This document shows positions 8,639-17,600 of a DNA stretch of 64,000 nucleotides, piece after piece (position 1 is the stretch's first letter; each line of letters begins with the position of its first letter). The position numbers are program-made. Location: NCBI RefSeq assembly GCF_001677475.2, contig NZ_CP015229.1; one strand, 5' to 3'. The DNA is from Escherichia coli (GTDB lineage Bacteria > Pseudomonadota > Gammaproteobacteria > Enterobacterales > Enterobacteriaceae).

Positions 8639-11600
8639 TAACCGCTGATTTACCCGGCGCAGTCTCTCCTGCGCCGGTGTATTAACCTATCTCCTGTAAC
8701 GCATGTCTCTGGCGTTCGACGATATTGGTCCACAAGTTATCTTTATCGTCGGTCCATAAATTAATCAGCAAGGCAAAAAAGCGTTCTGCAGCCGGAGAAA
8801 GCACGGCATCTTTGCGGCGAATAATCCCCAATGTCCGACGTATAACCGGTTCCACCAGCGGGATACCAATAATCGAAGAATAGGGTGCATGGGGCATTGC
8901 CAGACCAGGAAGCGCCGAAATCCCCAGTCCCGCCTCCACCAGTCCTAATGACGTCGAAAGATGACGCACTTCGTAAAACCAGTCCAGCTTCCAGGGCTTG
9001 TCGGCCAGCTGTTGTTCTATCAACAGTCGGTTGCCGCTGGAGGAGCGCACGCCAATCATTTTGTAACCCACTAACTCCTGCCATTCTACAAGCTGCTTTT
9101 TGGCCAATGGATGGTCACGCCGACAGGCCAGCACGAACGGCTCGTTGACCAGTGGGGTAAAATCAATGGATGAATTTGTGACGTTGTTCATGTTTATGCC
9201 AAAGTCTGATTCGTTACACAGCACCGATTCCATGCAATTATTCGTGCCTTGTTCCAGAATCCGCACTTTAATATTGGGATACAGCTCATTAAATTTACCA
9301 ATTGCCAGTGGTAAAAAATAAAATACTGCGGTCGGAATACACGCTAACGTCACCATACCACGATGATAAGCATTCATATCACGAATGCTAAAAAGCGTTT
9401 CATCGAATTTCTTTATTAATTCCCGCGCCTCCGGGAGCAACCTTTTTCCTGCTTTTGTTAACGTAACCTTGCGAGTTGTACGCTCAAAAAGTTGTATGTG
9501 TAAATCTTCTTCCATCTTTTTTATTCTTCGCGTTAATGCAGGTTGCGTAATATTGAGTAATTTAGCGGCATTGTTAAATGAACTGGACTCTGCCAGTATG
9601 ACAAATGCCTTCATACTTGATAATTCATGCTTCATTATTACTCCGGAAAATGGAAGCGACGATTTTGGGTGGCTGGCCGTTAAAAATTTTAACTGCATTT
9701 AGCCAACTTAAATTAATGAAAAAATGTTATTAATCGTTGAGCTAAAGTCATTAGAGATGCTTTGCCCTTAATGTAACCATATCGCAATAAGTTATGTTTT
9801 TAAATTGAGGGCATTATTATGAAAAAAATACCCTGCGTGATGATGCGAGGTGGAACCTCGAGGGGCGCGTTCCTGTTAGCGGAACATCTACCCGAAGATC
9901 AAACGCAGCGCGATAAAATATTGATGGCAATTATGGGTTCCGGTAACGATCTGGAAATTGACGGTATTGGCGGCGGTAATCCGCTGACCAGTAAAGTCGC
10001 CATTATTAGCCGCTCCAGCGATCCGCGTGCAGATGTCGATTATCTGTTTGCTCAAGTTATCGTCCATGAGCAATGTGTCGATACCACGCCTAACTGCGGC
10101 AATATGCTGTCTGGCGTTGGGGCATTCGCCATTGAAAATGGTTTGATTGCAGCGACTTCGCCAGTTACCCGCGTACGTATCCGCAACGTCAATACTGGTA
10201 CGTTCATCGAGGCTGATGTGCAAACGCCAAATGGTGTTGTCGAGTACGAGGGTAGCGCCAGAATTGACGGCGTACCGGGTACTGCCGCACCGGTTGCGCT
10301 CACTTTCCTGAATGCCGCCGGAACCAAAACCGGAAAAGTCTTCCCGACTGATAATCAGATTGATTATTTTGACGATGTCCCGGTGACCTGTATCGATATG
10401 GCGATGCCAGTTGTCATTATTCCTGCTGAATATCTGGGAAAAACAGGCTATGAATTACCGGCGGAGCTGGATGCCGACAAAGCATTATTAGCCCGCATTG
10501 AATCTATCCGTCTACAAGCGGGTAAAGCAATGGGCTTAGGTGATGTCAGTAATATGGTTATCCCTAAACCTGTGCTTATTTCTCCAGCGCAGAAAGGCGG
10601 GGCAATTAATGTGCGTTATTTTATGCCGCATTCTTGCCATCGCGCGCTGGCGATAACCGGTGCTATTGCTATTTCCAGTAGTTGTGCATTGGAAGGCACC
10701 GTCACCCGACAAATCGTCCCTTCTGTTGGATACGGCAATATCAATATTGAACACCCCAGTGGTGCGCTTGACGTTCATTTAAGCAATGAGGGTCAGGATG
10801 CCACGACGTTACGCGCATCTGTTATTCGGACGACCAGAAAAATATTTTCCGGTGAAGTTTATCTTCCCTGAAAAAATTCTTTGTCGTGATAAGGACAATC
10901 AATAAAGGACTTCTGTATGAGTCATACAGAAAGAACAGGATTTTAAATGAATAAGAAATCGTTATGGAAGCTAATTCTGATATTAGCGATCCCATGTATT
11001 ATTGGCTTTATGCCAGCTCCGGCAGGATTAAGCGAACTGGCGTGGGTACTGTTTGGTATCTACCTTGCGGCAATTGTGGGTCTGGTTATTAAGCCATTCC
11101 CGGAACCTGTCGTACTGTTAATTGCGGTTGCCGCTTCAATGGTCGTCGTGGGTAACTTATCCGACGGTGCGTTTAAGACCACCGCCGTATTAAGCGGTTA
11201 CTCTTCAGGTACCACCTGGCTGGTGTTCTCGGCGTTCACCTTAAGCGCCGCATTTGTGACCACCGGCTTAGGCAAACGTATAGCCTATCTGCTGATTGGT
11301 AAAATCGGTAACACCACGCTGGGTCTGGGTTACGTTACGGTATTCCTCGATCTGGTACTGGCTCCGGCAACACCGTCTAACACCGCGCGTGCGGGCGGCA
11401 TTGTGTTACCGATCATCAACAGTGTGGCGGTGGCTTTGGGGTCCGAACCGGAAAAAAGTCCGCGTCGTGTCGGACATTACCTGATGATGTCCATTTACAT
11501 GGTCACCAAAACCACCAGCTATATGTTCTTTACCGCAATGGCGGGGAACATTCTGGCGCTGAAAATGATTAACGACATTCTGCACCTGCAAATTAGCTGG

Positions 11601-14600: not shown

Positions 14601-17600
14601 TGCAAATGGCGGAAGCACCAACGTTTGAAGTGGGGGATTACATTTACATCCCTGGCATTAAAGCGGCGCTGGATAATCCGGGTACGACGTTTAAAGGTTA
14701 TGTGATCCATGAAGATGCGCCGGTAACAGAGATTATGCTCTATATGGAAAGTCTGACTGCTGAAGAGCGCGAGATTATCAAGGCGGGTAGTTTGATTAAC
14801 TTCAATAAAAACCGTCAGATGTAAAAAAAGGCGCTATGAAATATAGCGCCCAGTTTCATTAACCCGATGGTTCAGACTATCGGGTTTTCTTTTTTACTTC
14901 TTCGCCTCTGCAACCACTTTGCTACCCACGCCGCGGTTATTGTACTCCCACATGCGGTTGTAGTTAGTGTCATTTAGATTACGCTGTACTTCGTCGTTAT
15001 CATCAACGTTGCCAGTATTACCCGCAAACGGACGATTGGAAATCACCGCATCGGCCCACGGTTTCGCCGTGTTAAAACCTTCGTTGATGGCGCTATCACG
15101 GATCACCACCTGACCGTTGGTATTGGCATCAACATCCAGCGAGCGACCCAGTTGCGCCACGCCATCACCGGAAGCATTGAAACGGCTGTTTACGGCGAGG
15201 AAACCGTAATAGATGTTAGACAGTGTTGCCGGTGCAAACACATACGCTTCTTGCTGAGTACGTGAGTTCACCACGCGGAACTCGGTATTATCGAACACCA
15301 CTGCGCCGCGACCAGAAACGATATCCACATCCCCTTCAATGTAACTGTTGGTCACCAGAGTACGCGGCTGACGGTTGGTTTCCAGACGGTTTTGCACACC
15401 ACTGTTGGTGACAAAGAAGGTATTCTGACGACCGAGAATGTTGACGTTATTGATCTGCACTTTGTCGCCATCAGTACGCAGTGCCACCGCCGGATGGTTA
15501 CCCGCATCTACGCTATCGCCCAGCGTGTTTTCGATAGTCAGGTTTTGCAGTTGCAGGCCATTGTTTTGTGACCAGAAGACCGCAGAGCAGAGAACGCCGA
15601 TACTGTCGCTGCGTTTGCTCTGGCAGCTATCATACATATACCACGCTGGTTTACCTGGCATATATTTGCCGCGCGGGTTGACGTCGTGACGCCAGTCGGC
15701 AGGGCTCATGCCCCCATCAAGGGAAAGCCCAATCTTCACATCAATCGGTTTTTCACCTGTACCGTACAGAGTAATTCCACCCGGAGTGGCAGGAACATAC
15801 ACCGTTCCCTGATACTCACCAGGCATCACGGCAATATACTGGCGCTTGTTGGTACGCTTGATAATTGCCGCATCTACCGCCGCCTGAATCGTGGTATGCG
15901 TTACACCTTGAGTACCCGCCGGGCCGACAACAAAGTCAGGTTGCGCAGGCAGGGTAATCGGGGAAGGATTCCATGCTGCAGCACCTGGTGTCAGGGACGC
16001 AAAATAGTGTTGAGCATCGAAATTCTGCGCTTCTTTTGCCGACAGAATCGGGCGAGAAGAGGTACCAGGCGCGGTTTGATCAGAAGGACGTTGATCGGGC
16101 GGTGTTGAGCTACAGGCGGTCAGCGTCACGCCAAAAGCCAATGCCAGCGCCAGACGGGAAACTGAAAATGTGTTCACAGGTTGCTCCGGGCTATGAAATA
16201 GAAAAATGAATCCGTTGAAGCCTGCTTTTTTATACTAACTTTAGCGAAACGGGAAGGTAAAAAGACAAAAAGTTGTTTTTAATACCTTTAAGTGATACCA
16301 GATGGCATTGCGCCATCTGGCAGAGTGATTAACTAAACATCGCCGTAATCGAGGCGCTGGCCAGAGAGTGGAAATGAACGTTAAACCCGACCATCGCGCC
16401 GCTGGCACCTTCATCGACATCAATACGTTCTACATCCAGCGCGTGAACGGTAAAAATGTAGCGATGGGTTTCGCCTTTCGGCGGCGCTGCACCATCGTAC
16501 CCGGTTTTACCAAAGTCGGTACGCGTCTGCAAAACGCCGTCTGGCATTGCTACCAGACCAGAGCCAAACCCTTGCGGTAATACGCGGGTATCAGCGGGTA
16601 AATTAACAACTACCCAGTGCCACCAGCCGGAGCCGGTTGGCGCATCCGGGTCGTAGCAGGTGACGACAAAACTTTTCGTTCCCGCAGGAACATCATCCCA
16701 CGCCAGATGCGGTGAAATATTATCGCCATCGTAACCCATGCCGTTAAAGACATGACGATGCGGCAACTTATCGCCATCGCGCAGATCATTACTGATGAGT
16801 TTCATGAACCCTCCTTTCTAGTTTGCAGAAAGTGTAGCCAGAAACCCACACGCTGACTTCCCGTTATTGGCAAAAAAATGTTTCATCCTGCACCGCACGG
16901 TTAACCGCTGCGGTCAGACGCTGCAACTGTTGCGGGAGAATAATATAGGGCGGCATCAGGTAAATCAGTTTGCCAAAAGGCCGGATCCATACCCCCTGTT
17001 CGACAAAGAATTTTTGCAGCGCCGCCATATTCACCGGACGAGTGGTTTCGACCACGCCAATGGCCCCTAGCACGCGCACATCGGCAACCATTTCGGCATC
17101 ACGGACGGGGGCAAGTTGCTCGCGCAGCTGTACTTCAATATCCGCCACCTGTTGCTGCCAGTCGCCAGATTCGAGAATCGCCAGGCTGGCGTTTGCTGCC
17201 GCGCAGGCCAGCGGATTGCCCATAAAAGTTGGCCCGTGCATAAAGCAGCCGGCTTCGCCGTTACTGATGGTTTCTGCAACCTCGCGCGTGGTGAGTGTGG
17301 CGGAAAGGGTCATTGTGCCGCCGGTTAAGGCTTTACCGAGGCACAAAATGTCCGGCGCGATTTCTGCATATTCACAGGCAAACAGTTTGCCGGTACGACC
17401 AAATCCGGTGGCGATCTCGTCGGCAATCAGCAAGATACCTTCGCGATCGCACATTTTGCGGATTCGTTTTAACCATTCCGGATGGTACATGCGCATCCCG
17501 CCTGCGCCCTGGACAATCGGCTCAATGATCACCGCCGCGATTTCATGACGATGCGCCGCCATCAGGCGGGCAAAACCAACCATATCGCGTTCATCCCATT

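Follow-up and report, generated by a model that had tools for sequence, protein, structure and literature searches.

Isomerases of the PrpF family that act on aconitate are established (TarA, TbrA, Adi1 and PrpF itself; PMC11495376, PMC12492653, PMC5690661). In the tarR-tarAB system of Bacillus velezensis (PMC11495376), and likewise in tbrAB of B. thuringiensis, an operon opens with the gene for such an isomerase, continues with a transporter gene and is preceded by a divergent gene for a LysR-type regulator. The ybhD-ybhHIJ cluster of Escherichia coli shares this layout. It was analysed here in a window of 64,000 nucleotides from assembly GCF_001677475.2 (contig NZ_CP015229.1); coordinates are positions in this window unless a comparison locus (L followed by a number) is named. 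The four genes belong to the core genome of E. coli, yet they are still without a function after decades. We consider it very probable that they form a regulated module for the uptake, isomerization and hydration of a tricarboxylate. That the physiological substrate is aconitate, most likely trans-aconitate, is a reading that sequence and gene context favour slightly. The genes themselves have long been known as y-genes; what is new here is a testable substrate hypothesis, the recognition of an over-extended product name and a proposed chimeric origin of the cassette.

The resemblance to tarRAB extends to the proposed chemistry, which in both cases would be an allylic trans/cis isomerization. 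The differences lie in the transporter, which is the DASS-family YbhI rather than an MFS importer (TarB) or a DMT exporter (TbrB), in the presence of an additional dedicated hydratase of the aconitase family, in the identity of only 40% between YbhH and the TbrA-type protein and in the sign of regulation, since YbhD acts as a repressor in a deletion test (PMC9068703) whereas TarR is an activator. In E. coli itself, ttdR-ttdABT similarly combines a divergent LysR-type gene with genes for an Fe-S hydro-lyase and a DASS substrate:succinate antiporter. Over about 480 residues YbhI is 33% identical to CitT, the citrate:succinate antiporter encoded in citCDEFXGT, and 34% identical to TtdT, the L-tartrate:succinate antiporter. 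However, YbhJ belongs to the aconitase family and TtdAB to the fumarase class I family, the ybh cluster adds an isomerase step, and YbhD and TtdR are 26% identical over 117 residues only.

The AcnD-PrpF pair of Shewanella (PMC5690661) offers a third comparison, in that an aconitase-family dehydratase is coupled to a PrpF isomerase that corrects the geometry of a double bond. YbhJ scores 63 bits against the AcnD model (TIGR02333; cutoff 1420) and YbhH 190 bits against the PrpF model (TIGR02334; cutoff 440), and neither prpB nor prpC is present at the ybh locus. A preliminary description of the window had called YbhH PrpF-like and akin to the partner of AcnD; membership of the PrpF family stands, but a close relationship to the AcnD/PrpF pair for 2-methylcitrate does not. 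Unlike AcnD-PrpF, the ybh cluster includes a transporter, which implies an external substrate.

Open reading frame (ORF) calling recovered the four genes at 8682-9698 (-), 9819-10871, 10947-12380 and 12539-14824 (+). Together with the RefSeq models and with domain matches far beyond chance, this bears out the positions and orientations given in the preliminary description. The RefSeq starts of ybhD (9635) and ybhJ (12563) fall inside the longest ORFs, and GGAG lies 7 bases upstream of the latter; ybhD (-) and ybhJ (+) end with their stop codons at the outer limits of the locus, 8682 and 14824 respectively. The flanking genes (modC, ybhA and pgl on one side; ybhC, ybhB and bioA on the other) are the usual E. 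coli neighbourhood. In a megablast search the 6.1-kb segment matched annotated ybhD, ybhH, ybhI and ybhJ; of 5426 complete E. coli genomes, 5315 covered at least 80% of it, and the best match reached 98.5% identity. E. albertii and Citrobacter have the cassette in this order, with ybhD divergent from ybhH, ybhI and ybhJ, at the site that it occupies in E. coli; the order is also kept, at other chromosomal sites, in Edwardsiella and Klebsiella aerogenes. In the last of these it adjoins the citrate-fermentation genes citS and oadGAB, a citAB-like two-component pair and citC (L003 12356-22286). Values of dN/dS against E. albertii (unsaturated) are 0.02-0.04 for all four genes (0.03 for ybhD) and do not exceed 0.10 for any of them in more distant pairs; all four genes are under strong purifying selection. 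A cassette that travels as a unit, with selection acting on each of its parts, supports the earlier view of the locus as an uptake-and-catabolism module.

YbhJ contains the catalytic domains (Aconitase, PF00330) and the swivel domain (Aconitase_C, PF00694) of the aconitase superfamily, together with E 5e-88, and is recognized by the NCBIfam model NF008503, 'hydratase'; it scores 343 bits against the best curated aconitase model, NF005558, below the cutoff of 612. Its cluster cysteines Cys360, Cys421 and Cys424 align with Cys358, Cys421 and Cys424 of mitochondrial aconitase, and it retains the base Ser641, His93, His131, Asp149, Ser150, His151, Glu246 and the substrate-binding arginines R443, R448, R565 and R643. 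Five substrate contacts differ from mitochondrial aconitase (Q72H, D100C, N258V, N446T and S643A); the counterpart of aconitase Asp100 in YbhJ is Cys92, a residue found throughout the clade. Across 74 of 74 YbhJ-type proteins (E. coli included) there is no variation at any of the 19 aligned catalytic and contact positions, these five among them.

Relatives of YbhJ were collected by a representative-level search combined with a scan of species genomes, which gave 80 species-level loci; ORFs were called in 73 loci, the neighbours were clustered and representatives were checked against Pfam and NCBIfam. Apart from those in a few Enterobacterales, the closest relatives of YbhJ (60-72% identity) come from strict anaerobes of the gut and rumen (Lachnospiraceae, Hungatella, Blautia, Collinsella, Acidaminococcus, Megasphaera, Synergistales and Erysipelotrichaceae). 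In four loci (L015, L016, L017 and L029) the YbhJ-type gene is followed by the genes for citrate synthase and isocitrate dehydrogenase (IDH), and in others (L011, L012, L024, L028, L031, L033, L049, L074 and L077) it adjoins one or both of these, so that at least 13 loci place a homolog of YbhJ, although not that of E. coli itself, with citrate synthase or IDH. Citrate lyase genes, citDEF(G), adjoin it in six loci (L011, L018, L037, L052, L066 and L085). Because the whole clade has the same active-site signature as the proteins in the aconitase position, it would represent an aconitase type of anaerobes. YbhJ is thus probably an aconitase, and sequence relationships suggest that the enteric copy of its gene was acquired from gut anaerobes.

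Several of the anaerobes also have the remaining parts of the cassette. In Lachnospiraceae bacterium JC7 (L037) and Oribacterium (L052) a LysR-type gene is divergent from genes for a PrpF-family protein, a MatC/CitMHS-type transporter and the YbhJ-type hydratase, with citDEFG directly after them; the arrangement is permuted in L085, and the metagenomic contig L007 has genes for LysR, IDH, PrpF and a YbhJ-like protein on one strand. Acidaminococcus fermentans gains energy by fermenting trans-aconitate, with citrate, oxaloacetate and pyruvate as intermediates, and its genome paper lists among the candidates a gene pair for a MatC carrier and an 'aconitate hydratase domain protein' (PMC3035267). 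The A. fermentans locus in our set (L059), probably Acfer_0630/0631 and neighbours, has a four-part layout identical to that of E. coli: LysR at 6304-7284 (-), PrpF at 7547-8689, the MatC-type transporter at 8708-9979 and the hydratase, with 67% identity to YbhJ and the same active-site signature, at 9992-12295. It would presumably serve the use of trans-aconitate in that organism. It differs from the ybh cluster in its MatC/CitMHS-type transporter and in its PrpF (40% identity) and LysR (25%) proteins, which are not orthologs of YbhH and YbhD. The transfer of a single operon between Firmicutes and E. coli was therefore considered and rejected: only the hydratase is common, and the layouts were assembled in parallel. 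Parallel assembly in turn speaks for the parts being functionally linked.

In Collinsella (L035, L038, L040, L043-L048, L051, L053-L056, L058, L060 and L067) the YbhJ-type gene is consistently found without metabolic partner genes; by eye, its neighbourhood looks like a heat-shock context, with apparent dnaK, dnaJ and hspR/MerR-type regulator genes before it and clpB after it. Some contigs from anaerobes contain two or three YbhJ-like paralogs side by side (L005 6280-8544 and 9440-11680; L007 2199-6418 and 10001-12202), with 45-59% identity to YbhJ. Those of L005 are near genes for an alanine racemase, an SDF-family carrier and a LysR-type protein. The sequences of these paralogs hint that the YbhJ-like clade has diversified to other substrates.

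YbhH matches the PrpF family (PF04303) at residues 1-350 (E 1e-167) and is identical at 349 of 350 residues to the protein of PDB entry 6OTV, deposited as 'putative isomerase YbhH'; a search for a paper accompanying this entry found none. Lys59 and Cys93 align with Lys66 and Cys100 of LigU, the residues mutated in PDB entries 6P3H and 6P3K, and are conserved in all 16 PrpF-family members compared. Relatives of YbhH are found in Rhizobium and Agrobacterium, where the isomerase gene is the first of a cassette that consists only of a divergent LysR-type gene, the isomerase gene and genes for an ABC importer with an NMT1-type binding protein. YbhH is 54-58% identical to the rhizobial type and forms a clade with it in 100 of 100 bootstraps (neighbour-joining). 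Since import and a single isomerization constitute the entire pathway in these cassettes, the product of the isomerase should be a central metabolite, and the obvious case within the PrpF family is the conversion of trans-aconitate to cis-aconitate.

A TbrA-type protein from a B. thuringiensis plasmid, with a DMT transporter encoded next to it as described for tbrAB, has the short form and the PHxCH motif in common with YbhH; the two do not form a joint clade in the neighbour-joining tree. A published survey (ISME J 2024, Table S6; PMC11495376) lists a 'tarA' homolog with about 40% identity in E. albertii, Shigella, E. fergusonii, Citrobacter, K. aerogenes and Edwardsiella, and this enteric homolog would be the ortholog of YbhH. 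Judged from its sequence relatives, YbhH is probably an aconitate isomerase.

One position of the YbhH sequence is peculiar to this window. Codon 86 (10074-10076) is TGT (Cys), as opposed to CGT (Arg) in K-12, in the 6OTV protein and in the reference strain; it lies seven residues before the catalytic Cys93, and the orthologs of Klebsiella and Edwardsiella have Arg. Among 4518 complete E. coli genomes that match the surrounding 61-nucleotide stretch, none matches the version in the window exactly. Cys86 is either a private allele or a sequencing error.

The layout would equally suit another tricarboxylate, such as 2-methylcitrate/2-methylaconitate, homoaconitate, hydroxycitrate or a similar plant acid, which YbhJ would hydrate or dehydrate and whose geometry YbhH would correct. 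A PrpF protein paired with an aconitase-family enzyme follows the logic of AcnD-PrpF (PMC5690661), YbhJ departs from canonical aconitase at five contact positions, and gene context fixes neither the direction of flux nor the exact ligand. We nevertheless regard this reading as unlikely. Both proteins fall far below the cutoffs of the AcnD and PrpF models, no genes for methylcitrate synthase or lyase or for homocitrate metabolism are near the E. coli locus, homologs that share the active-site signature have genes for citrate synthase, IDH and citrate lyase as neighbours and not prp genes, and the rhizobial cassettes require a central metabolite as the product of the isomerase.

The annotation of the family points elsewhere. 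YbhH scores 514 bits against NF033377 (4-oxalomesaconate tautomerase), above the cutoff of 440, and the characterized structure closest to it is LigU (317 bits, 46% identity), with which it shares the fold as well as the catalytic Lys and Cys. It could thus be a tautomerase or delta-isomerase of 4-oxalomesaconate (OMA), in an operon that scavenges the tricarboxylates produced by ring cleavage of lignin or tannin and in which YbhJ takes the place of LigJ. OMA is a close structural analogue of aconitate, a fact that also speaks for this possibility. The contexts of the genes that carry the name argue otherwise. In Sphingopyxis and Azospirillum the gene named 4-oxalomesaconate tautomerase lies between the genes for the CHA aldolase and a LigJ-type amidohydrolase and adjoins protocatechuate 4,5-dioxygenase genes; these are true lig clusters. 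The partners of YbhH, in contrast, are a transporter and an aconitase-type enzyme, and ligJ, ligK and ligAB are not near it. Lig-type proteins are 44-49% identical to YbhH, less than the rhizobial type, and form a clade of their own in 100 of 100 bootstraps; this clade is the sister of the YbhH group in only 4 of 100. The rhizobial genes bear the same product name, as do genes of Paracoccus and Alloyangia that follow a tripartite tricarboxylate transporter and adjoin the tricarballylate dehydrogenase genes tcuA and tcuB. Because the name is attached to these contexts as well, it is likely to be over-extended, and the four genes concerned (Table 1) are, from their sequences and neighbours, likely isomerases of tricarboxylates (aconitate). 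By clade and gene context the ybh cluster is not a member of the pathway of LigU and GalD (protocatechuate 4,5-cleavage and gallate) that its annotation implies, and a role in OMA metabolism appears improbable.

A role in the metabolism of C5 branched dicarboxylates (itaconate, methylitaconate, citraconate or mesaconate) is equally improbable. It would resemble the action of Mii and dimethylmalate dehydratase in nicotinate fermentation, with the isomerase making a maleate-type alkene that the aconitase-family enzyme hydrates. Mii (3-methylitaconate isomerase; PDB entry 3G7K) does match YbhH with 232 bits and 45% identity over the N-terminal domain, and one UniRef entry names an Edwardsiella ortholog '2,3-dimethylmalate dehydratase large subunit'; this name is an unverified label. 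Itaconate is also relevant to bacteria that live in a host. However, the invariance of all four aconitase-type substrate arginines (R443, R448, R565 and R643) fits a tricarboxylate, and the homologs are found with citrate synthase, IDH, citrate lyase and tricarboxylate transporters and never with methylitaconate mutase or dimethylmalate lyase.

YbhI, of the DASS family (2.A.47), matches Na_sulph_symp (PF00939) over its full length (E 7e-195) and scores 554 bits against TIGR00785. In view of its similarity to CitT and TtdT it is probably an exchanger of a tricarboxylate for a dicarboxylate; its identity to the 2-oxoglutarate/malate translocators of plants is about 35% (PMC9068703). Antisense to ybhI, at 11412-11663 (-), Rfam gave a sub-threshold match to the Yersinia antisense sRNA Ysr283, with 37.4 bits (gathering score 58; E 1e-7), and may reflect only conserved ybhI-like coding sequence in the Rfam seed.

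YbhD has the two domains of a LysR-type regulator, HTH_1 (PF00126; E 3e-21) and the LysR substrate-binding domain (PF03466; E 3e-46). Over its full length, effector domain included, it is 47% identical to the Rhizobium regulator encoded divergently from the YbhH-type isomerase. This value is high for the LysR family across classes of proteobacteria and suggests a shared effector; it makes YbhD and YbhH look like partners that stayed together, as regulator and isomerase, while the transporter was exchanged. Three blocks of the control region (Table 1) are conserved from E. coli to Edwardsiella; the candidate operator is present in 5 of 5 orthologous spacers, and E. albertii, Citrobacter and two Edwardsiella species have it in the form ATTAAT-N11-AYYAAT. 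A scan of the ybhD-ybhH spacer with the sigma-70 consensus found no promoter. An operator common to the rhizobial and E. coli promoters was also sought; AT-rich dyads are present and Agrobacterium shares the 9-mer AAATTAATG, which was too weak a resemblance to retain.

The published record agrees with the preliminary description in that the substrate is not established. No biochemical assignment for ybhD-ybhHIJ was found in the literature searched, and the sole functional study gives a tentative label, 'L-malate utilization related' (PMC9068703). In that study of 2022, deletion of ybhD strongly raised the expression of ybhH, a ChIP-exo site for YbhD and control by Nac were reported, and growth of the deletion strain in glycerol M9 medium was affected only if L-malate was supplied (PMC9068703). 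Elsewhere, deletion of ybhJ made cells sensitive to H2O2 and low in NADPH, resembling an icd deletion (PMC4054840), which speaks for the aconitate reading, and ybhJ mRNA was 18-fold higher in E. coli fed by a green alga than in LB (PMC10972114). Three further papers (PMC13192712, PMC5318444 and PMC10645362), in which ybhJ or ybhI appears in a strain genotype or in simple lists, contain no functional information.

That the operon serves mainly for the use of L-malate or other C4-dicarboxylates was tentatively proposed in 2022, and the malate-dependent phenotype and the similarity of YbhI to the plant translocators (PMC9068703) speak for it. This is slightly less probable still than a role for OMA or for C5 dicarboxylates. 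There is no obvious role in it for a PrpF isomerase and an aconitase-type hydratase, and no homolog context points to C4 metabolism. E. coli, moreover, already has the Dcu and DctA carriers and fumarases for these acids. The phenotype is explained equally well if the de-repressed exchanger YbhI needs a counter-substrate and takes malate or succinate in this role.

That the cluster is a cryptic or decaying relic with an inactive aconitase paralog is the least probable of the alternatives: a published statement that YbhJ is catalytically inactive (PMC4054840), the lack of a known growth phenotype, a repeat element of the ERIC type within the operon and a split ybhI in one Edwardsiella tarda strain are outweighed by dN/dS values of 0.02-0.10 in all four genes, ORFs that are intact in 5315 of 5426 E. 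coli genomes, the invariance of every catalytic residue of YbhJ, the retention of gene order after relocation in other genera and regulated expression (PMC9068703).

With aconitate as the substrate, the four proteins can be arranged in a single route. The gut would supply aconitate, most likely plant-derived trans-aconitate, which YbhI, acting as a CitT/TtdT-type exchanger, would import against succinate (probably) or another C4-dicarboxylate. Lys59 and Cys93 of YbhH would catalyse a 1,3-allylic proton shift that moves the double bond and converts trans-aconitate to cis-aconitate, which YbhJ would hydrate to citrate or isocitrate, and these products would be consumed by citrate lyase (CitDEF, under anaerobic conditions) or by Icd. 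YbhD would bind the divergent promoter, keep the operon off when the inducer is absent and presumably respond to the substrate. In this scheme we infer the direction of flux, the antiport and the effector of YbhD. Grasses are rich in trans-aconitate, which is of importance for the nutrition of ruminants. The need for a dedicated aconitase may plausibly arise from the inhibition of housekeeping aconitases by trans-aconitate (PMC11495376).

A more detailed version, which we put forward only tentatively and think rather doubtful as a whole, is that the cassette, in E. coli and a few other enterics, is chimeric: a normally silent third aconitase, YbhJ, obtained from gut Firmicutes or Actinobacteria, would have joined an older proteobacterial YbhD-YbhH pair and a CitT-like exchanger in order to ferment plant trans-aconitate anaerobically via citrate lyase, with an aconitase of its own because AcnA and AcnB are inhibited. 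If the aconitate hypothesis as such holds, a carbon source and a third aconitase would be added to the metabolic map of E. coli, and the inter-phylum transfer of an enzyme of central metabolism in the gut would be documented. The null results of aerobic screens with single carbon sources would also be explained, because the exchanger needs a counter-substrate such as succinate and citrate lyase is anaerobic. Finally, the label '4-oxalomesaconate tautomerase' would be corrected, not only for YbhH but also for many rhizobial and Rhodobacterales genes in tricarboxylate contexts.

Several observations weigh against the assignment of aconitate. By sequence, YbhH is as close to LigU (46% identity) as to the TbrA-type protein (40%) and passes the cutoff of the OMA tautomerase model. 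The five contact residues of YbhJ depart from those of mitochondrial aconitase, and the aconitase role of the YbhJ type in anaerobes is deduced from gene context. The parallel with the Firmicute clusters is limited to the layout and the hydratase, since their PrpF proteins (37-40% identity) fall in a different clade from YbhH and their LysR proteins (25% identity to YbhD) are likewise not orthologs. Enzyme, transport or effector assays of the four proteins were looked for and none has been published. We know of no report that E. coli grows on trans-aconitate. Mutants lacking acnA and acnB require glutamate, so YbhJ does not replace AcnA and AcnB in the laboratory. Blank, Green and Guest reportedly found in 2002 only that an acnAB mutant kept the same residual aconitase activity when ybhJ was inactivated. 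This outcome is uninformative on YbhJ itself, because the same result is expected if ybhJ is repressed. Their work is the source cited when YbhJ is termed 'a catalytically inactive paralog of aconitase' (PMC4054840, citing Blank, Green and Guest 2002). Finally, the only phenotype reported for the deletion of ybhD involves L-malate (PMC9068703).

Table 1. Features of the ybhD-ybhHIJ locus (positions in the window) and, in the last four rows, of comparison loci whose genes carry the product name discussed in the text
Feature	Position	Strand	Basis or remark
ybhD, LysR-type transcriptional regulator, 317 aa	8682-9635	-	RefSeq model; longest ORF to 9698
ybhD/ybhH divergent control region, 183 bp, 40-43% GC	9636-9818		Sequence reading
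Candidate YbhD operator, ATTAAT-N11-ATTAAT (LysR-type T-N11-A dyad)	9712-9734		Sequence reading
Block AAAGTCATTAG, possible second regulator site or promoter element	9744-9754		Invariant in 5/5 orthologous spacers
Block ATGTAACCAT upstream of ybhH	9771-9780		Kept as ATGYAACCAT in 5/5 orthologous spacers
ybhH, PrpF-family allylic (delta) isomerase, 350 aa	9819-10871	+	RefSeq model; full-length PrpF
ybhI, DASS-family transporter, 477 aa	10947-12380	+	RefSeq model; full-length Na_sulph_symp
ybhI-ybhJ spacer	12381-12562		ERIC/IRU inside
ERIC/IRU repeat in ybhI-ybhJ spacer	12386-12509		ERIC2 primer exact at 12424-12445
ybhJ, [4Fe-4S] aconitase-family hydratase, 753 aa	12563-14824	+	RefSeq model; ORF from GTG at 12539
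Terminator-like hairpins between convergent ybhJ and ybhC	14830-14850, 14861-14886	+	Consensus scan
Terminator-like hairpin between convergent ybhJ and ybhC	14851-14829	-	Consensus scan
Gene named '4-oxalomesaconate tautomerase', no lig/gal neighbours	L091 6001-7083 (rhizobial)		
Gene named '4-oxalomesaconate tautomerase', no lig/gal neighbours	L092 6001-7083		
Gene named '4-oxalomesaconate tautomerase', no lig/gal neighbours	L095 5001-6095		
Gene named '4-oxalomesaconate tautomerase', no lig/gal neighbours	L096 4986-6074		

The cassettes of other genera vary in detail. That of K. aerogenes has a gene for an additional DASS/CitMHS-type transporter between ybhI and ybhJ (L003 8683-9945) and a second LysR-type gene downstream. 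In E. tarda ybhI is divided into two ORFs of 230 and 260 residues (L002 8483-9915), probably a strain-specific pseudogene; the gene is intact in E. hoshinae (L010). The Edwardsiella proteins are 79-88% identical to their E. coli counterparts, and lateral spread of the cassette is suggested because this identity seems high for a different family of Enterobacterales.

Base composition gave no clear signature of a horizontally acquired island, only a mild dip in GC content (40-45% at the promoter and spacer). At 9000-10000, in the divergent promoter and the 5' half of ybhD, GC content is 40-43%, compared with 50-57% in the flanks. Such marked AT-richness is common in regulatory regions and in DNA that nucleoid proteins silence.

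A long hairpin (-62.8 kcal/mol, z = -6.6) is formed on folding by the spacer between ybhI and ybhJ, which contains an ERIC/IRU repeat; the boundaries of the repeat coincide with a sub-threshold match to the Rfam family V_AS5 (46.9 bits; gathering score 96). E. coli and E. albertii alone have the repeat at this locus; Citrobacter, Edwardsiella and Klebsiella lack it, and it therefore entered the operon later. Another hairpin, at approximately 12527-12548, ends just ahead of the ribosome-binding site of ybhJ.

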